A stretch of DNA of 64,000 nt. Origin: Acidobacteriota bacterium (GTDB taxonomy: Bacteria > Acidobacteriota > Thermoanaerobaculia > Multivoradales > UBA5704). Where the stretch lies: assembly GCA_040349255.1 (NCBI GenBank), contig JBEQUE010000010.1, positions 68,216 through 132,215 of the forward strand, read 5' to 3'. Of this stretch, positions 5,903-58,473 are shown in pieces. Position 1 is the first letter of the stretch; the number at the start of each line of letters is the position of its first letter. Under the pieces are notes generated by a model that saw only the letters and a list, made by a program, of their open reading frames with translations, was not told where the DNA came from and did no database searches. The position numbers and the translations under genes were made by a program.

Positions 5903-5990
5903 CTGGCACCATGGTTGCAGCTTTCCTGAGGGACGGTGGGGATGTTCCCTGCTGAGCAGCTTCCTGAAACGACACCAGACAGGAGGGGCC

Positions 5991-6431
5991 ATGAAAAGGC
6001 AGATGCTCATGCTCCTGACGTTGGCGCTCGTGCTCGTCGCGGGCACGGCCCTCGTCGCCCAGACCACTGGAACCACACAACTTCCGCCGAGCCAGCAGGT
6101 CGATCAGTCGGGCAAGCCCGAGACCGGCACCGGTCCGGACGTGGACGTCGACGTCGGCAAGAACGCCGAGGATGGCGTCATGGACGTGGACGTGACCCGC
6201 AACACGGACGCCGACACGGCAGCCCAGGGCAACGACCACCCGATGGACAATCATGCGATGGACACCACGACGGGCAGCACGGCCACCGGGACCGGCACGG
6301 CTGACACCACCACCACCGGTACGGCTGCCGACCAGGGCAACCTGCCGGCCACCGGCAGCGAGATGCCGCTGATCGGCCTGATCGGCCTGTTCGCCCTCGC
6401 GGGCGCCGCCACCCTGCGCGCCTCCCGCTGA
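5991..6431 (+). CDS. Small secreted acidic Thr/Asp/Gly-rich protein with C-terminal LPXTG-type sorting signal
   Basis: Signal peptide MKRQMLMLLTLALVLVAGTALVAQ. Low-complexity acidic body. C-terminus LPATGSE + MPLIGLIGLFALAGAATL + RASR. AGGAGG RBS. Followed by a terminator hairpin. Confidence 0.75.
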   Translation: MKRQMLMLLTLALVLVAGTALVAQTTGTTQLPPSQQVDQSGKPETGTGPDVDVDVGKNAEDGVMDVDVTRNTDADTAAQGNDHPMDNHAMDTTTGSTATGTGTADTTTTGTAADQGNLPATGSEMPLIGLIGLFALAGAATLRASR

Positions 6432-6459
6432 CCTCGACTTTCCACGAGGTCCCTTCGAT

Positions 6460-6494
6460 GATGCCTCCGCTCCGGCGGAGGCATCGTCTTTCTT
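6460..6494 (+). terminator. Rho-independent terminator hairpin between convergent genes
   Basis: GATGCCTCCGC (6460-6470), TCCG loop, GCGGAGGCATC (6475-6485), then GTCTTTCTT. Lies 29 nt after the 5991..6431 stop and abuts the stop of the convergent ATPase gene. Confidence 0.6.
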
Positions 6495-7654
6495 CAGTTG
6501 AGCGGTGCAACCTTCTCCCGGAGTGCCATCAGTGCCACCGCTCGAATGCGGGGAGCCAGCGGATAGGACTCCTCGCCGGCATGAACCACCACCAGTTCCT
6601 CCAAATCCAGGGCTTCCAGGGACGACCGCATAGAGGGGGTGACGCGCGGACTGCTGGTGAGCTTGAGCTCGAAGCCACGACGGATGTTGCCGCGGCGAAC
6701 CAGGAGATCCAGTTCGGCGCCGCTGTGGAGCTTCCAGAAGAAGCACTCCTCCGGCCGGGCTCCCAGATGCGAGACGACCTCGCCGATCGCGAAGCCCTCC
6801 CAGGACGCTCCCACCTTGGGGTGGCTCAACAGGTCGTCCCGGGTTTCCAGTCCTAGCAAGGCATGAAGGATGCCGCTGTCGGCCAGATAGATCTTGGGCG
6901 CCTTCACCTGCCGTTTGGCAACGTTCTCGTACCAGGGCTCCAGACGCTTCGCCATGAAGGTGGAGCACAGGGTTTCCAGGTAGTTGAGCACGGTCTTGTT
7001 GGACACGCCGAAGGCCCGGGCCAGCTCCGAGGCGTTCCAGATCTCCCCGTGGTAGTGGGCCAGCATGGTCCAGAACCGCCTCATTGTCGTGGAGGAGAGC
7101 TGGATGCCCAGCTCGGAGAGGTCACGTTCGAGATAGGTCCGGATGAATTGCTGTCGCCAGAGGCCGCTGGCGGCCTCCGACGACGCGATGAACGAGCGCG
7201 GGTAGCCGCCGCGGAACCAGAGCGTCTCCAGACTCTCCGAGCCCACCTCGTCCAGGCTGAAGCCTTCGAGCTCGTGGTAGGCGATGCGGCCGGCGAGCGA
7301 TTCCGAGCTCTGCCGCAGCAGCTCCGGAGACGCGCTTCCCAGCACCAGGAACCGGGCCGGCGCCTCCGGCCGGTCCGCCAGCACTCTCAGGACCGGGAAG
7401 AGCTCAGGGCGGAGTTGGATCTCGTCGAGCACCACGAGGCCGCGCAGCCCTTCCAGGGCGAACATCGGATCGTCGAGCCTCGAAAGGTGTCGCGGATTCT
7501 CCAGGTCGAACCGAGTGACTTCGCCCGGGGCTGAATCGGCATAGGACATCGCCAACGTGGTCTTCCCTACTTGCCGCGAGCCGATCAGGCCAACGACCGG
7601 GAACTGGGCCAAGAGGGTCTGAAGCCGATTGAGGTGCCCGGGACGCTCGATCAC
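6494..7654 (-). CDS. AAA+ ATPase with DUF4143-type C-terminal domain
   Basis: Walker A GLIGSRQVGKTT and Walker B VVLDEIQ. C-terminal region resembles the DUF4143 (restriction-endonuclease-like) family by eye. GTG start at 7654 (VIERPGHLNRL) chosen over the longer TTG start at 7702. Confidence 0.75.
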   Translation of the reverse strand: MIERPGHLNRLQTLLAQFPVVGLIGSRQVGKTTLAMSYADSAPGEVTRFDLENPRHLSRLDDPMFALEGLRGLVVLDEIQLRPELFPVLRVLADRPEAPARFLVLGSASPELLRQSSESLAGRIAYHELEGFSLDEVGSESLETLWFRGGYPRSFIASSEAASGLWRQQFIRTYLERDLSELGIQLSSTTMRRFWTMLAHYHGEIWNASELARAFGVSNKTVLNYLETLCSTFMAKRLEPWYENVAKRQVKAPKIYLADSGILHALLGLETRDDLLSHPKVGASWEGFAIGEVVSHLGARPEECFFWKLHSGAELDLLVRRGNIRRGFELKLTSSPRVTPSMRSSLEALDLEELVVVHAGEESYPLAPRIRAVALMALREKVAPLN

Positions 7655-10600: not shown

Positions 10601-10860
10601 GATAAGCCCGTTCCGCGCCGGATGACGTTGTTTTCCGGCGGATAAGCCTGTTCCGGGCTGGATAAGCGGACTTCGCCGTCGATAAGCCCGATCCGCGACG
10701 GATAAGCCTGTTCCGGCGTCGATAAGCCGACTTCTCGACGGATAAGCCGACTTCTCGACGGATAAGCCGACTTCGCAACAGATACGGCGAAGCCGCAACG
10801 GATCAGCCGGAGCTGCAATAAATAACGCTGCGTCGCCGCGGATAAGCTCGCTCCGCCTCC
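10601..10860. repeat. Tandem array, 13 units in exact 20-bp register, consensus GATAAGCCnnnTTCnnnnCG
   Basis: Read directly from the sequence: gataagcccgttccgcgccg / gatgacgttgttttccggcg / gataagcctgttccgggctg / gataagcggacttcgccgtc / ... / gataagctcgctccgcctcc. Two identical neighbouring units at 10721-10760. Lies in the divergent intergenic region between 10373 and 10970. Confidence 0.9.
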
Positions 10861-19022: not shown

Positions 19023-19814
19023 TCAGCCGCGTCCGCGGAGGCGGTCGAGCTCGGCCTGCAGGCTTGCGTTTTCGGCCTCGACCGCCTTGCGGGCTTCGAC
19101 CGCTGCCCGCGCAAGGTCCTTCTCTTCCTGCCGGGTCAGGAGAGGCTTGCCCGAAGGGTGCTCGGACATCCGAACGCGGTTGCCATCCGGAGTGACCTGG
19201 AACCAGAGGCCGGTCGTCTCGGAGAGCAGGCGCCCCTCCTCATCCGGCTCGATCGGCTGGTATCCCGAGGGGCCCAGCCGGTAGCCGAGAAGCCGGTAGC
19301 GGCGATCCCGGCGCTGGCAGTCGGCGATCAGGTACTCGGGGATCCCGACCCGCCGATAGAGGGCGACCTTGTCTTCCAGGTCGGTCTTGCGGATGCGGGA
19401 GGACAAGGGCGAAACCACCTCGATCACGAGACAGGGACGGACGCCTTGCGCGGCGACGTCGAAGCTCTCTCGGTCGGCCTCCTTGTCGCGCACGCCGCGG
19501 ATCACCGAGACGTCGGGGGACGGCTGGTCCAGCCCTGGACCGAACAGGAACTTGAGATCGAACGTGACCAGCACGTCCGGGACCGGCTGGAAGAAGTCGT
19601 CCAGCAGATCGGCGATCTGGCGTGCGGTGTCGCCGTGACGTTTTCCCTGGGACATGTGGTCGCCGACCTGGGGGTTCAGGAACAGCTCGGGAGTCAGGGG
19701 CATCACGACCAGCTCCATCCGGCCACCGGGACGTTCCACCCAACGCTCCAAGGTGATCCCCGGCTCCTCGTCGAGGAGCTCGTGTTCGATCGGCTTGCGG
19801 ACAGGTTCAGCCAT
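19023..19814 (-). CDS. Uma2-family (DUF820) restriction-endonuclease-like protein with coiled-coil tail, copy 1
   Basis: PD-(D/E)xK-like core PDVSVIRGV...PCLVIEVVSPLSSRIRKTDLEDKVALYRRVGIPEYLIAD typical of the Uma2 family. ATG 19814 (MAEPVRKPIE) lies 7 nt after a TATACT box. Close paralog of 21840..22631. Confidence 0.75.
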   Translation of the reverse strand: MAEPVRKPIEHELLDEEPGITLERWVERPGGRMELVVMPLTPELFLNPQVGDHMSQGKRHGDTARQIADLLDDFFQPVPDVLVTFDLKFLFGPGLDQPSPDVSVIRGVRDKEADRESFDVAAQGVRPCLVIEVVSPLSSRIRKTDLEDKVALYRRVGIPEYLIADCQRRDRRYRLLGYRLGPSGYQPIEPDEEGRLLSETTGLWFQVTPDGNRVRMSEHPSGKPLLTRQEEKDLARAAVEARKAVEAENASLQAELDRLRGRG

Positions 19815-19821
19815 GACCCCG

Positions 19822-19850
19822 AGTATAGACAGTCGCCCGAGACCCGTCAA
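19822..19850 (-). promoter_or_regulatory. Sigma70-type promoter TTGACG-17-TATACT, apparently driving a leaderless Uma2 mRNA
   Basis: On the minus strand: TTGACG (19850-19845), 17-nt spacer, TATACT (19827-19822), then 7 nt to ATG 19814. No room for an RBS. An identical element precedes copy 2. Confidence 0.5.
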
Positions 19851-20075
19851 AGATATCGCGGAAAGGAGACGAAGGGAAGGGGGCGACGCGGAAAGACGTC
19901 ACCAGCCTACGCAATCCCCACCTCGCGGAGTCCCAGAATAGATGCCCCCTATGAGAGCATGATAATAATCACTGCGATCGTTAGTTTCGCGCTAGCATAC
20001 GATGGCGAGGTTTGGAGGCCAGTCGCCTAACACAAGGCCTCAAGCGCCTGACGGCCCCGCCTAGGCCCGGATCGT

Positions 20076-21300: not shown

Positions 21301-21821
21301 CCGGTAAGGTTACCGGGGACGCGACAATCTTGTCTGGCGCCGTACAAAGTCTGGCAGGCGGCAGACAGGCTTGTCTGTCGCAAACAAGGTTGACGGGAGA
21401 GAGGCTCGACTTATTTCGCCGCGCGACAAGCTTATCCATGGCGCGATAAGCTTATCCACCGCTCGCTAACGTTATCGGGGACCCGACAAGCTTGTCGGAG
21501 GCAAGACAAGCTTGTCAGCCTCCAAGACAGGGTTGTCGGCGGCAAGAAAACGTTAGCAGGAGCCAGCACAACGTTATCCGCGGCAAGTCAAGGTTGCTGG
21601 CCGGCAAACAAGGTTGTCTCGCCGTAGATAAGCTTTAGGGACCGGAAAGCAACGTTGGCTCGCCGCCGACAACCTTGTCGGCGACCAAACAACCTTGTCG
21701 GCTTCCAGGACAAGGTTGTCGGCGCCCGGATAACGTTATGAGCAGCCCGGATAATGTTATCCGCGGCAAATCAAGGTTGTCTCGCCGCAGATAAGCTTGT
21801 CAGCCTTCCCACAAGCCTTCG
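21301..21821. repeat. Tandem array of 26 units with 19-21 bp centre-to-centre spacing, each with a 12-bp quasi-palindrome GAYAAS-STTRTC
   Basis: Hand-mapped cores include GACAATCTTGTC 21323-21334, GATAAGCTTATC 21445-21456, GACAAGCTTGTC 21485-21496 and 21505-21516, GACAACCTTGTC 21668-21679, GACAAGGTTGTC 21709-21720 and GATAAGCTTGTC 21790-21801. Lies between the convergent 3' ends of the HEPN gene and Uma2 copy 2. Confidence 0.9.
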
Positions 21822-21839: not shown

Positions 21840-22631
21840 CTATCGCGGGCCGCGGAGGCGATCGAGCTCCGCCCGGAGCCGGGCGACCTCATCCTCGGCA
21901 ACCCGCGCTTTCTCTTCGGCCGCGCTGCGCAGGTCCGCCTCTTCGTCATGGGTCAGGAGAAGCCGGCCGGATGGGTGCTCGAACGTCCGTACGTGATCGC
22001 CGTCGGGAGTGACCTGGAACCAGAGGCCGGTCGTCTCGGAGAGGAAGCGCTCCTGCTCGTCCAGCTCGACCCTTTGATACCCGGAGGAGCCCAGTCGATA
22101 GCCGAGGAGGCGGTAGTGGCGATCGTGGCGCTGGCAGTCGACGATCAGGTACTCCTGGATTCCGACGCGCCGATAGAGCGCGACTTTGTCCTCCATGTCG
22201 GTCTTGCGGATACGGGAGGACAGGGGCGAGACGACTTCGACGACCAGGCAGGGGCGGACGCCCTCGGCGGCGATGTCGAAGCTCTTCCGGTCGGCCTTCT
22301 TGTCGCGCACGCCGCGGATCACCGACACATCGGGAGAAGGCTGCGACAGGCCCGGACCGAAGCGGTGCTGGACATCATAGGTGACCACAACGTCAGGGAT
22401 GGGGCCAAAGAAACGAACCAGAGCGCCGTAGATCTCGTACACGGTCTCGCCGTGGCGCTTTCCCTGGGTCATGTGGTCGCCGAACCGGGGGTTCAGGAAC
22501 AGCTCGGGCGTCAGCGGCATCTCGACCAGCTCCATCCGGCCACCGGGACGTTCGACCCAGCGCTCCAGGGTCATCCCCGGCTCCTCGTCGAGGAGATCGG
22601 ATTCGATCGGCTTGCGGACAGGTTCAGCCAT
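21840..22631 (-). CDS. Uma2-family (DUF820) restriction-endonuclease-like protein with coiled-coil tail, copy 2
   Basis: Same architecture and mostly identical sequence to 19023..19814 (MAEPVRKPIESDLLDEEPGMTLERWVERPGGRMEL...). Same promoter and leaderless context. Confidence 0.75.
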   Translation of the reverse strand: MAEPVRKPIESDLLDEEPGMTLERWVERPGGRMELVEMPLTPELFLNPRFGDHMTQGKRHGETVYEIYGALVRFFGPIPDVVVTYDVQHRFGPGLSQPSPDVSVIRGVRDKKADRKSFDIAAEGVRPCLVVEVVSPLSSRIRKTDMEDKVALYRRVGIQEYLIVDCQRHDRHYRLLGYRLGSSGYQRVELDEQERFLSETTGLWFQVTPDGDHVRTFEHPSGRLLLTHDEEADLRSAAEEKARVAEDEVARLRAELDRLRGPR

Positions 22632-22638
22632 GACCCCG

Positions 22639-22667
22639 AGTATAGACAGTCGCCCGAGACCCGTCAA
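22639..22667 (-). promoter_or_regulatory. Sigma70-type promoter TTGACG-17-TATACT, leaderless arrangement (copy 2)
   Basis: TTGACG 22667-22662, 17-nt spacer, TATACT 22644-22639, then 7 nt (cggggtc) to ATG 22631. Confidence 0.5.
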
Positions 22668-22726
22668 AGATATCGCGGAGAGGAGACGAAGGGAAGAGGG
22701 CGACGCCGAAAGGCGTCACGCAGCGG

Positions 22727-34882: not shown

Positions 34883-35100
34883 GGGGATGACCCGCTCCCC
34901 GACCGTGGCACCGTGCCACGCGCGGGGCCGCCGCGCCACAGCCGGGGATGACCTTCTCCCCGACCGTGGCGCCGCGCCACACGCGGGGATGACTCGCTCC
35001 CCGACCGTGGCGCCGTGCCACGCGCGGGGCCGCCGCGCCACAGCCGGGGATGACCCGCTCCCCGACCGTGGCGCCGCGCCACGCGGCGTGGCGGCACAGC
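34883..35100. repeat. Tandem repeat: alternating 61-bp and 41-bp units (102-bp super-unit, about two copies) with embedded 7-1-7 palindromes
   Basis: Units start with GGGGATGAC at 34883, 34944, 34985 and 35046. Each carries GTGGC(A/G)C-C-G(T/C)GCCAC. The array is intergenic, between the lipoprotein gene and the DUF433 gene. Confidence 0.85.
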
Positions 35101-35162
35101 CCCGTTCGCCCGCGCCTCGGGACCTGTTTCAGCGATGGGCTGCCAAGGGCTAGAATAGCCGC

Positions 35163-54852: not shown

Positions 54853-55560
54853 TCAGTACTCGGGAGCCTGCTGCGAGCTGCGGAGCACTATCTCCTCCAC
54901 CCGCGCTCCGGCCGGCAGCCGCAGGGCGAAGCGGACAGCCTCGGCGACCACGCCGGGCTGGAGGAACCACTCCTTGCCCGGCGCGCCCGGCGTGGAGCCG
55001 GCGAACGAGGTGTCCACGGCGCCGGGCCGCAGCTCCAGCACCCGCAGCTCCGGGTTCTCCTGCTGAAACGTTCGCGCGAGCGCCCGCAGGGCGAACTTCG
55101 AAGCGGTATAAGAGCCGCCGGTCGGAAACGTCCGGGTGGAGACATCCGAGGAGACCATGAGGACGATCCCGCGGCTCTCCCTGAGCCAGGGAAGGAATGC
55201 GACCGTCGCGGCCCAGGCGCCGAAGACGTTCACGCGGAAGGTGGACTCGAAGTCCTCCCGCGACGTCTCCTCCAGGCGCCGGAAGATGCCGATCCCGGCG
55301 TTGTTGACCAGGACGTCGAGCCGTCCGAAACGCTCGATCGCAGCCCGGCGAAACGCCTCGATGCTGCCCGGATCGGTCACATCGAGGGCCAGACCCAAAG
55401 CCGGGCCGGGCAGCTCGGCCGCGAGCCGCTCGACCGCCTGGACATCCCGCGCACCGAGAACGACCGCGAAGCCTTCTTCGGAGAGGACCCGGGCGAAGAC
55501 CGCCCCCAGGCCCCGGGAAGCGCCGGTGACGACGGCGACACGGGCGACGCGGTTGTCCAT
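54853..55560 (-). CDS. Classical short-chain dehydrogenase/reductase
   Basis: VAVVTGASRGLG, NNAG and YTASKFAL (YxxxK). Confidence 0.85.
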   Translation of the reverse strand: MDNRVARVAVVTGASRGLGAVFARVLSEEGFAVVLGARDVQAVERLAAELPGPALGLALDVTDPGSIEAFRRAAIERFGRLDVLVNNAGIGIFRRLEETSREDFESTFRVNVFGAWAATVAFLPWLRESRGIVLMVSSDVSTRTFPTGGSYTASKFALRALARTFQQENPELRVLELRPGAVDTSFAGSTPGAPGKEWFLQPGVVAEAVRFALRLPAGARVEEIVLRSSQQAPEY

Positions 55561-55631
55561 GGATCGATCCTACACGATCGCGGCATGGCGATCTCTGCAC
55601 GCCGGAGGCGGACAGCGATAGACTGCTCCGG

Positions 55632-55991
55632 ATGGACGCGCAGGCCGATACCTTCCGAGCTTTTCATGCCAGACGGGAGCGGGCCCGCCTGGAGGAAAGG
55701 GAAAACTTGCGCCTCGACATCCTGGACCGCGCCAAGGCCGCAATTCTCCGGCAGGCTCCGGCGTTTCCCGCGATCCGGGCTGCCTATCTCTTTGGTTCGA
55801 TCCTCCAGCCGGGCCAATTTCACGAGGGCTCGGACGTCGACATCGCCATCGACTGCGACGACATCGGAGTCGAAACTCCGTTCTGGCGGGCTCTGGAGGA
55901 CGAGTTGCAGCGGAACGTCGATGTGCGTCCCCGCGAAGGCGCGGTGGCCCGGGCCGTCGAGGCCTACGGAGAGAAGGTCTATGGACGATAG
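55632..55991 (+). CDS. Minimal nucleotidyltransferase (MNT-type antitoxin-like)
   Basis: AYLFGSILQPGQFHEGSDVDIAID fits the GSx(n)DxD pol-beta-type NTase motif. 11-nt overlap with the downstream gene. Confidence 0.7.
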   Translation: MDAQADTFRAFHARRERARLEERENLRLDILDRAKAAILRQAPAFPAIRAAYLFGSILQPGQFHEGSDVDIAIDCDDIGVETPFWRALEDELQRNVDVRPREGAVARAVEAYGEKVYGR

Positions 55992-56448
55992 GTTCCTGAT
56001 CCTGGAGCGCAGCATTCAGGACGACCTCGAAACCATCGAGCGCCTCTATGAAGAGCTGGGCGACCCGCGCCTGGATGCCCTGAACCAGGAGGGTCTGATC
56101 ATCGTGGCCTACCGGCTGCACGGCCTGTACTCCGCCTTCGAGAACATCTTCCGCAACATCGCCAAGGCCTTTGAAAACCACCTCGATTCATCCTCCTGGC
56201 ACCGGCAGGTCCTGCAGCGGATGAGGCTCGACCTCAGCCCAATCCGTCCGGCCGTCGTGGATGAGGAGGCCTACGAGAAGCTCGACGAGCTCCTCCGCTT
56301 CCGCCACCTGTTCCGTACGGGCTACGGCGTCCGCCTCGACGCCCAACGCCTTCAGTTGGTCTTGCAAAAAACCTTGGAGCTGAAGTCGATCTACCCTCAG
56401 CAGGTCGCTCGTTTCCTGGACTTTCTCCGCTCGTCCTCTCAAGGCTGA
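55981..56448 (+). CDS. HepT/HEPN-like partner of the MNT gene (motif non-canonical)
   Basis: All-helical 155-aa protein. LDELLRFRHLFRTGYG sits where HepT/DUF86 proteins carry RxxxxH.Y. In-frame tail of ORF 54658..56448 starting at ATG 55981. Confidence 0.45.
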   Translation: MDDRFLILERSIQDDLETIERLYEELGDPRLDALNQEGLIIVAYRLHGLYSAFENIFRNIAKAFENHLDSSSWHRQVLQRMRLDLSPIRPAVVDEEAYEKLDELLRFRHLFRTGYGVRLDAQRLQLVLQKTLELKSIYPQQVARFLDFLRSSSQG

Positions 56449-56509
56449 CGGCAGTGCGCGGCACTCCCGCGCGTGCCGTAATGCCTCTTTGGCACGACGG
56501 AGTTCTTTC

Positions 56510-56840
56510 CCGAAGACTCTCGGCAAACTGCCGAAAGGTCTCGGCGAGTTGCCGAGAGGTCTCGCCGTCTCCCGAGAACCCTCGGCGGGGCGCCGAGAGT
56601 CCTCGGCAAAGCGCCGCGGGTCCTCGGCAAAGGACCGAGAGTCCTCGGGAAGCGCCGAGAGCTCTCGACGAGACGCCGAAAGGTCTCAGAGACCGCCGAG
56701 AGGTCTCGGCGGCGCGCCGCAAGGTCTCGGGAAACGCCAAGGGCTTTCGGCAAACCGCCGAAACTCCTCGGCAAGGCGCCGAAAGGTCGCGGGAGACGCC
56801 GAGAGTCTTCGGCAAGGCGCCGAAAGGTCTCGGCAAAAGG
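56510..56840. repeat. Tandem array of 16 units of 20 or 21 bp, each with a 14-bp quasi-palindrome CCGARAnnTCTCGG
   Basis: Hand-parsed unit starts: 56510, 56531, 56552, 56572, 56593, 56614, 56635, 56655, 56676, 56696, 56717, 56737, 56758, 56779, 56799, 56820. Example units: ccgaaaggtctcggcgagttg, ccgagaggtctcggcggcgcg. The array ends 16 nt before the amylase ATG. Confidence 0.9.
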
Positions 56841-56856
56841 CCTTTAGAATGGCGTC

Positions 56857-58473
56857 ATGAGAACCACTCCGCTGCCGGCCCTCGTCCTGGCCGTCCTGCT
56901 CGGCGCCTGCGCCGGCGCCCCTCCTGCGCCATCCGCCGTGCCGGCTCCCGCGCCGGCGGCATCGGACCAGGACTGGCTGCGCGGCGCCGTCTTCTATGAG
57001 GTTTTCGTGCGCAGCTTCGCGGATTCGAACGGCGACGGCGTCGGCGATCTCCGAGGATTGACCGCGAAGCTCGACTATCTCAACGACGGCGATCCGGCCA
57101 CGACCACCGATCTCGGCGTGGACGCGCTCTGGCTCATGCCGGTGTTCCAGTCGCCGAGCTACCACGGCTACGACACGGTGGACTACGAGCGGATCGACGA
57201 CGAGTACGGCACGGCCGAGGACTTCCAGCGCCTGCTCGACGAGGCCCATCGGCGCGGTATCCGGATCATCGTGGACTTCGTCATGAATCACTCCTCCGAC
57301 AAGCACCCGTGGTTCGTGGAGTCGGCCTCGTCGCCCATCTCCCCGAAACGCGACTGGTACGTCTGGCGCGCGGACGATCCGGGGTGGACCCCGCCCTGGG
57401 GCGGCTCCAATCACACGTGGCACGAACGCAACGGCGCCTTCTACTACGGAGTGTTCTGGGGCGGCATGCCGGATCTCAACTTCTCCACGCCCGCGGTGCG
57501 CCGGGAGATGGAGCGCCTCGCCGCTCTCTGGATCTCGCGCGGGGTCGACGGCTTCCGGCTCGACGCCACCCGCCACCTCTTCGCGAACGGGCCGGGCGAT
57601 CTCCAGAACGATCAGCCCGAGACCTTCGATTTTCTCAAGGAGTTCGCGGCGAGCGTCCGCCAGGCCAGTCCGAGCGCCGTGCTGGTCGGAGAGAACTGGA
57701 CCGAGACGCCGATCATCGCGCGCTACTACCAGGCGCTCCCGATGAGCTTCGACTTCCCGCTCTCCGAGGAGATCCTGTCGGGAGTGGAAACCGGCGAGGC
57801 CGCTGGAATCGCCAACAAGCTCGACGAGATCCTGGAGCTCTATCCACCGGGAGCGATCGACGCGCCGTTCCTCACGAATCACGACATGAAGCGCTTCGCC
57901 ACCGGGCTCGGCAACGATCCGGCGAAGCTGCGCAGCGCCGCCGCGGTCCTCCTGACCTTGCCCGGAGCGCCCTTCCTCTACTACGGAGAAGAGGTCGGAC
58001 TTCAGAACGGTCCTGGCAGCCAGGATGAGCACAAGCGCACCCCTATGCCCTGGGACTCCTCCGAAACAGGCGGCTTCACCACGAGCAGGCCCTGGTACGC
58101 CTTCGCGCCGGGCAAAGAGACCTCCAACGTGGCCGCCCAGACGTCCGACCCTGGCTCTCTCCTGTCCCGCTATCGCAACCTGATCCGGGCGCGTAAAACC
58201 TCACCGGCCCTTCAGAAAGGCGATCTGAAAATCTTGACCTCGCTGGTGAAGAGCGATCCCGTCCTGGCCTTCGTACGCCAAGCCGGAAACGAGCGGGTGC
58301 TGGTGGTCCACAACCTCGGCACGGCCGAGGCCGAGGCGGGGCCCTATGACATCGAAGGCAACGGTTTCGAACCGGTCTTCACGACCGGCGGGATTGCCGC
58401 GCCGGTTCAGGCCGAGGCAGGATTGACGGTCAAGCTGCCGGCAGGCGCGAGCGCGGTGTGGAGAATCCGATAA
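56857..58473 (+). CDS. GH13 alpha-amylase-family glycoside hydrolase, lipoprotein-type signal
   Basis: LLGAC lipobox. [65 protein letters not shown] and FLTNHD are the conserved GH13 regions. Confidence 0.9.

Follow-up and report, generated by a model that had tools for sequence, protein, structure and literature searches.

The window, which here means the whole 64,000-nucleotide stretch of DNA that was analysed, contains a run of genes starting with a DUF72 gene (+ strand), a solute-binding protein gene (−) and the short-chain dehydrogenase gene adh_short (54853–55560, −). Amylase homologues place the window in Thermoanaerobaculia (Acidobacteriota), and its source is an uncultured soil acidobacterium. 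The three genes are followed by an MNT/Pol-beta-type nucleotidyltransferase gene (the antitoxin; 55632–55991, +) and a HepT-like toxin gene (Pfam PF20797; 55981–56448, +) that has an 11-nt overlap with the MNT stop codon. Beyond the HepT-like gene come a 60-bp unique spacer (56449–56508, +) with a GC-rich hairpin at approximately 56450–56478, an array of 16 short tandem units (56509–56839, no strand assigned), the hexamer TAGAAT, a GH13 alpha-amylase gene (56857–58473, +) and a glyoxalase-like gene. The amylase has a lipoprotein-type signal peptide, and its gene lacks a Shine-Dalgarno sequence. With its solute-binding protein, GH13 enzyme and glucodextranase-like protein, the locus is a maltodextrin-type cluster, in which adh_short is the ancestral divergent neighbour of the amylase gene.

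A preliminary description of this DNA placed the HepT stop at 56448 and the amylase ATG at 56857, and both positions hold. The 60-bp spacer at 56449–56508 could not be aligned with relatives (36–53% identity). Near-identical DNA is present in rhizosphere metagenome contigs. The metagenome contigs X1 and X2 carry an identical array, although the X2 contigs break inside it and are thus uninformative on copy-number polymorphism.

Architecture of the array

Each unit comprises a 16-bp dyad, GCCGA-N6-TCGGC, and a 4–5-bp linker that is frequently A-rich, and the units follow one another head to tail at 20 or 21 bp (mean 20.67). The inner positions of the dyad are partly conserved (GCCGA-RRnnYY-TCGGC). 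Given that TCGGC-N4/5-GCCGA is also an inverted repeat, the array forms an unbroken row of alternating half-sites approximately one helical turn apart. A fuzzy search located the 14-bp cores at 56510, 56531, 56552, 56572, 56593, 56614, 56635, 56655, 56676, 56696, 56717, 56737, 56758, 56779, 56799 and 56820, with core-to-core spacings of 21, 21, 20, 21, 21, 21, 20, 21, 20, 21, 20, 21, 21, 20 and 21 bp in that order. This search recovered the sixteen units, all of the spacings and the four core sequences that had been read by hand in the preliminary description. The three distal units (56509–56571, no strand assigned) read CCCGAAGACTCTCGGC AAACT GCCGAAAGGTCTCGGC GAGTT GCCGAGAGGTCTCGCC, and the promoter-proximal unit (56819–56834, no strand assigned) is again GCCGAAAGGTCTCGGC. 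Tandem Repeats Finder reported the region 56518–56837 with a period of 21, 15.5 copies and 65% matches, together with higher-order periods of 41 and 62 bp.

The motif is strongly concentrated in the array. Allowing one mismatch at most, CCGARAGNYCTCGG was matched 19 times in comparison with 1.5 matches expected from shuffles (about 13-fold; none of 100 shuffles reached 19), and 18 of these 19 matches fall inside the array. Of the perfect dyad GCCGA-N6-TCGGC, 0.66 copies would be expected in the 64-kb window; six are present, all within the array. Outside the array the 64-kb window has no solo perfect dyad and so gives no hint of an ordinary regulon.

The array is non-coding, and the earlier view that the overlapping open reading frames are artefacts is upheld: none of the four passes the GC3 coding filter and the two tested against Pfam gave no match. 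No Rfam family was matched by the array, with only far sub-threshold chance matches to miRNA and sRNA models, and a scan of 55400–57200 found neither a sigma-70 −35/−10 pair nor an intrinsic terminator. The predicted RNA fold of the array region is much more stable than that of shuffled sequences (z = −7.6). CRISPR arrays have repeats of 25–40 bp and unique spacers of similar length. With 16-bp dyads and 4–5-bp linkers between them, a CRISPR array was ruled out.

The amylase promoter

The preliminary description had proposed TAGAAT (56845–56850, +) as a possible −10 box with the last unit of the array at the −35 position, and both proposals are borne out. The hexamer lies 6 nt 5′ of the ATG, and TAGAAT-N6-ATG is kept in all ten orthologous amylase loci (the window itself, L064–L069 and L157–L159). 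The DNA 5′ of TAGAAT could not be aligned between these loci, and a Shine-Dalgarno sequence is absent. The array ends 10 bp upstream of the −10 box, and the dyad of the proximal unit is centred approximately 30 bp 5′ of the ATG, over the −35 zone (geometry counted from the sequence).

Similar hexamers stand 6–7 nt before the start codon of three genes of the window, none with a Shine-Dalgarno sequence: TAGAAT at the amylase (56845–56859), TAGACT-N7-ATG at MNT (55611–55634) and TAGGAT-N6-ATG at adh_short (55558–55580, minus strand). In L067, where adh_short and the amylase gene diverge, only 43 bp separate their start codons, and both genes have a −10-N6-ATG of their own.

Conservation across relatives, with TAGAAT-N6-ATG kept and the DNA upstream of it not alignable, indicates that the amylase, adh_short and MNT genes are most likely leaderless, with promoters that would need just a −10 box. 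The hexamers of these three neighbouring genes suggest that leaderless, −10-only promoters may be common in this lineage. Promoters of this type leave almost no intergenic DNA, as the 43 bp between the divergent genes illustrate. They would also explain where arrays and toxin–antitoxin cassettes can insert, and the array may abut the −10 box because the DNA further upstream is free, dispensable space.

Copy number and history at orthologous loci

Nine close orthologous loci were fetched (amylase identity 81–89%), and unit states were listed for nine loci, namely the window, L159, L068, L157, L065, L064, L066, L067 and L158. Full arrays are found in three. The window has 16 units and MNT/HepT; L068 also has 16 units, counting one extra degenerate promoter-proximal unit, and MNT/HepT; and L159 has 15 units and no MNT/HepT, its first three units being nearly identical to those of the window. 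L157 has two units left, one proximal and one distal, the latter a remnant of the window's first unit. L065 has the proximal unit only, next to an unrelated TATACAGTGGCG...CGCCACTGTATA palindrome array. The remaining four loci (L064, which has MNT/HepT, and L066, L067 and L158) have no unit.

The array is thus lost or collapsed in six of nine relatives, with four lacking any unit and two having only one or two, and cannot be regarded as a fixed part of the amylase promoter. Whether it travels with the MNT/HepT pair, as the preliminary description had asked of the relatives, is answered in the negative by L064, which has the pair and no array, and by L159, which has 15 units and no pair.

In a three-way alignment the full arrays match unit for unit, and every indel is one whole unit; the orthology of single units was judged from this alignment together with shared unit-specific variants. 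The amylase codon tree pairs the window with L065 (83% bootstrap), L159 with L067 (99%) and L068 with L157 (100%). In the sister of each full array the array has collapsed or is missing, which is most simply explained if the ancestor had an array that then contracted repeatedly. Insertion of the MNT/HepT cassette upstream of the array was independent of the array. The synteny of DUF72, solute-binding protein, adh_short, amylase and glyoxalase-like genes is kept over ten loci, on contigs of up to 1.24 Mb.

The gap between adh_short and the amylase gene is an insertion hotspot, with MNT/HepT in three lineages and arrays in five. In L066 (3500–5390, in the MAG with a 1.24-Mb contig) it holds a 1.9-kb insertion of lower GC content with two uncalled open reading frames and an MscL gene. 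In L065 (5720–5915), large palindromes of the form TTTATACAGTGGCG-N3-CGCCACTGTATAAA are found approximately 40–60 bp apart beside the single GCCGA-family remnant unit, and different array families thereby pile up in one gap at the amylase site.

Arrays at other loci

When one genome per species was searched for the pattern, the same unit turned up in arrays at unrelated loci, shared linker and centre variants included. L010 and L043 belong to one Thermoanaerobaculia MAG and L004 to another, while L044 and L030 are sub-family arrays in a MAG whose amylase locus, L066, lacks an array. Linkers compared between arrays of one genome, as a check for recent copying, showed only modest sharing. Further GCCGA-family copies occur in soil metagenome contigs.

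The neighbours of the dispersed arrays include a UDG-like gene, an AbiEi-like gene, an anti-sigma-like gene and unknowns. Searches with tblastn, Pfam and pairwise BLASTP found no neighbouring gene shared among six non-orthologous loci, and neither the amylase nor MNT/HepT lies near the five other GCCGA-family arrays. Shared terminal inverted repeats or common flanks were not found among the Thermoanaerobaculia arrays of this family. Viral and plasmid collections contained no such array and gave no BLAST match. The small-protein C-terminal motif GF..NP..L..FG..PR was absent from six-frame translations of the window and all fetched loci, and no regulator gene conserved across the orthologous amylase loci was found.

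AbiEi proteins are DNA-binding autoregulators. In L004 a five-unit array (6973–7080) lies approximately 140 bp upstream of the AbiEi-like winged-helix antitoxin gene (5961–6830, minus strand); as a single case, this adjacency is probably a coincidence. The array end GGTCTCGGCAAAAGGCCTTT is identical in L010, where no comparable −10 box follows it, and we attribute the match to chance or to a terminal unit common to both arrays.

Similar 21-bp arrays in Bacteroidota MAGs (L002, L006, L011 and L026) and in a 'delta proteobacterium' MAG (L027) were rejected as homologues, given their unrelated linkers and flanks, and probably arose independently. The palindromic core holds only about 7 bp of information, so that a few chance coincidences are expected among many such arrays. 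L002 (4363–4445) and L026 (5253–5415), from a Prevotellaceae MAG, and L006 and L011, from a Tannerella MAG, are near-perfect 21-bp arrays of TCCGAGAGCTCTCGGA units. The Prevotellaceae copies L002 and L026 are then followed by the same flank of about 60 bp (…AAAGGTGTGTTGGATACA…GTATAAATGG and a hairpin), as would be seen if both lay within a larger repeated or mobile element. In this they resemble 'BrickBuilt', a minisatellite-bearing MITE of Porphyromonas gingivalis, which is likewise dispersed and non-coding and has a tandem array of about 20 bp at its core (PMC4596501). The Thermoanaerobaculia arrays of this family differ from it in having no shared terminal inverted repeats or common flanks.

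Two further arrays with unrelated cores had been reported in the window, and both are real. One (10601–10860, no strand assigned) has the same architecture with 20-bp units of GGATAAGCC..., and the other (21301–21821, no strand assigned) is a palindrome array of GACAAGCTTGTC / GATAACGTTATC with a spacing of 19–21 bp; in the follow-up they were located at about 10640–10809 and 21421–21624, with 20–21-bp periods. Three arrays of the same architecture with unrelated cores in one window fit a lineage-wide phenomenon.

Several other repeats were noted. The GCCGA-family arrays of L044 (2900–2985) and L030 (6432–6571) are directly followed by short runs of AACAACCGTTG / GACAACGTTC, or lie 230 bp from an array of 21/42/63-bp periods. 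The AACAACCGTTG / GACAACGTTC palindromes resemble the window's 21301–21821 array, and different array families thus cluster together. The 21301–21821 region is itself flanked by two 291-aa paralogues of the Uma2 family (putative restriction endonuclease-like; 19023–19898 and 21840–22715, both minus strand). At 34883–35116, just downstream of an unannotated 171-aa open reading frame, lies a 102-bp tandem repeat (2.0–2.3 copies, 85–95% matches) composed of 41- and 61-bp sub-repeats and rich in CGCCGCGCCAC...GGGGATGACCCGCTCCCC.

Constraint on the dyad arms

Between the three full orthologous arrays, identity is 0.83–0.92 in the dyad arms, 0.59–0.70 at the inner dyad positions, 0.55–0.67 at the central two bases and 0.47–0.59 in the linkers, with four-fold synonymous sites of the amylase gene as a reference at 0.59–0.65. 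The linkers and four-fold sites fall below the arms, and we thus conclude that purifying selection acts on the arms of individual units wherever a lineage has retained the array. This conservation cannot be put down to GC bias, since A/T positions of the arms are as conserved as G/C positions (A5 in 76 of 80 units, T12 in 77 of 80). Recent homogenisation does not explain it either, as the linkers within any one array are nearly all different. In principle, the constraint might also stem not from binding but from copying or repair that is sequence-specific. The preliminary description had counted absence or high variability of the array in close relatives against a function; copy number does vary in this manner, whereas the constrained arm sequence indicates some function of the units.

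Spacing is similarly strict. In eight arrays, neighbouring scored units are 20 or 21 bp apart, or 40–41 bp across one degenerate unit, except for one step of 17 bp at the end of L004, which is degenerate; spacing averages 20.4–20.8 bp in the seven arrays with six or more good units. A spacing of 20 or 21 bp is approximately two helical turns and therefore puts all dyads on one face of the duplex. Independent RNA hairpins have no need of such phasing, which favours recognition of double-stranded DNA by a putative dimeric protein.

Explanations for the array

The array is best explained as a long-lived, locus-stable member of a dispersed Thermoanaerobaculia family of non-coding, copy-number-variable minisatellites. 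It does not belong to the amylase as a specific operator set, nor to the toxin–antitoxin genes as an appendage. Dispersed non-coding satellite families are reported to be rare in prokaryotes (PMC6749651), and no description of a dispersed chromosomal phased-array family of this kind was found in the literature searched. As to its role, we give an even chance to the reading that we prefer, in which the array would be a lattice of many docking sites for a dimeric DNA-binding protein whose gene lies elsewhere in the genome. Four other readings were weighed against it.

It is unlikely, although worth serious consideration, that the array is a selfish or neutral minisatellite without a cellular function, which owes its origin and persistence to replication slippage or unequal recombination and whose arms look conserved through steady copying from consensus-like units or through biased conversion or repair. 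Copy number does range from 0 to 16 among close relatives with whole-unit indels, the 41-, 62- and 102-bp higher-order periods point to block duplication, most lineages dispense with the array, and arrays of other families share its gaps (two kinds are present in each of L065, L044 and L030). The array is also like bacterial minisatellites or VNTRs, e.g., the mycobacterial MIRU, in being an intergenic tandem array that differs by whole units between close relatives. However, copying should homogenise linkers and centres too, whereas nearly every linker of an array differs, and orthologous arrays that align unit for unit combine saturated linkers (0.47–0.59) with arms at 0.83–0.92. A neutral VNTR would not be expected to combine arms slower to change than synonymous sites with saturation elsewhere in the unit, and the palindrome and the two-turn period also set the array apart from it.

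An array of single-stranded DNA or RNA hairpins akin to REP/BIME elements is improbable. The 5–7-bp stem-loops would stabilise or terminate the MNT–HepT transcript, insulate the amylase promoter or be acted on by a REP-associated (RAYT-type) transposase responsible for the spread of the array. The REP/BIME elements of Proteobacteria, dispersed and short GC-rich palindromes outside genes, can form tandem clusters and serve as binding sites of host proteins. The array shares several of these features, as every unit is a GC-rich palindrome, the family is dispersed over unrelated intergenic sites, here in tandem, the region folds with z = −7.6, and in both the window and L068 the array comes straight after the HepT stop. 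A REP is an imperfect palindrome of 20–40 nt with a GTAG or CGTC end tag, and this tag sorts most REPs into two super-families (PMC3733652). The present units differ, as each has a 16-bp dyad and no GTAG or CGTC tag. In addition, they run strictly head to tail at 20 or 21 bp without alternating orientation. A REP/BIME family has many solo or paired copies scattered over a genome; within the 64 kb of the window no solo copy was present.

The pairing evidence also argues against hairpins. Among 80 units from eight arrays there was no compensatory covariation, with no arm pair exceeding column shuffles (p 0.17 to 1.0), so that base pairing itself does not seem to be under selection. Deviations in the arms are uncompensated; the commonest variants, GAAAGGTCTC, break the inner stem, as do the frequent A6/C11 and A7/C10 combinations. 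Strict 4–5-nt linkers would have no rationale in independent hairpins, the array follows no gene end in L159 and L010, and neither a terminator-like site nor an Rfam match above threshold was found at the array.

There is little to recommend the view that a dedicated maltodextrin/amylase regulator has an amplified operator here, derived by duplication of a single ancestral site at −30 that tightened repression. A unit does lie over the −35 zone in five of nine orthologous loci, including the remnants in L065 and L157, and the cluster is of the maltodextrin type. However, the same units adjoin the UDG-like, AbiEi-like and anti-sigma-like genes with no amylase nearby, four orthologous amylase loci lack any unit, the locus has no conserved regulator gene, and the tree fits an ancestral array that later collapsed better than an array built up step by step from a single site. 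Operators of a transcription factor regulon are single sites at related promoters, whereas this motif forms arrays next to unrelated genes and has no site in the window outside the array.

Plasmids and phages are the textbook setting for phased repeat arrays to which small proteins bind. Type II parC sites, which ParR binds, and the iterons of P1, RK2 and R6K have whole-helical-turn spacing. In pSK41, continuous tandem repeats lie upstream of the par operon (PMC5016525). Plasmid centromere and iteron arrays are like the present one in having contiguous, head-to-tail short repeats at whole helical turns, and they provide a cooperative platform for a small dimeric protein, often overlapping the promoter that it represses (PMC5016525). 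The present array differs in being chromosomal and in conserved synteny, with no adjacent binding-protein or NTPase gene, in belonging to a family scattered over unrelated intergenic sites, in its higher copy number (15–16) and in coming and going among relatives. Hence, even though its contiguous repeats are, like those of type II parC, about two helical turns apart, a plasmid-type iteron or parC-like centromere marking a mobile replicon or partition site is hardly credible against chromosomal synteny over ten loci (contigs up to 1.2 Mb), no partition NTPase, Rep or centromere-binding protein gene alongside, and plasmid and viral collections without such an array.

Proposed function of the array

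Under the preferred reading of a docking lattice, each unit would offer two inverted half-sites of 5–7 bp (GCCGAra ... tyTCGGC) as individually selected binding sites. A dimeric sequence-specific protein would dock cooperatively along the lattice of about 330 bp, with all sites on the same side of the duplex. The lattice would fill the sole dispensable DNA between two minimal, leaderless, −10-only promoters, and its last dyad would lie over approximately −38 to −23 of the amylase promoter, where the bound protein would most likely occlude or gate it. The proximal dyad, centred at about −30, overlaps the seat of RNA polymerase, and occupancy should thus gate the amylase promoter. With whole units being added or removed through slippage or unequal exchange, the gating strength would then differ between lineages. 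Binding by a protein, its identity and the direction in which it would act on amylase transcription are all inferred.

Implications

The locus provides a natural series of 0, 1, 2, 15, 16 and 16 units before the same minimal promoter, which makes it a testbed for regulation by such lattices, and the array could be used as bait for the protein that reads them. In this family, the half-sites of each unit evolve more slowly than synonymous sites while whole units come and go.

A broader and more tentative proposal, on the doubtful side, is that Thermoanaerobaculia possess an undescribed protein–DNA lattice system that is directed by sequence. Many families of two-turn phased dyad arrays, each with its own reader protein, would serve as insulator, silencer or architectural elements of the chromosome, and in the present array 0–16 units, read by a protein encoded elsewhere, would tune a leaderless, −10-only amylase promoter. 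If true, this lattice system would be a bacterial analogue of copy-number-tunable silencer arrays.
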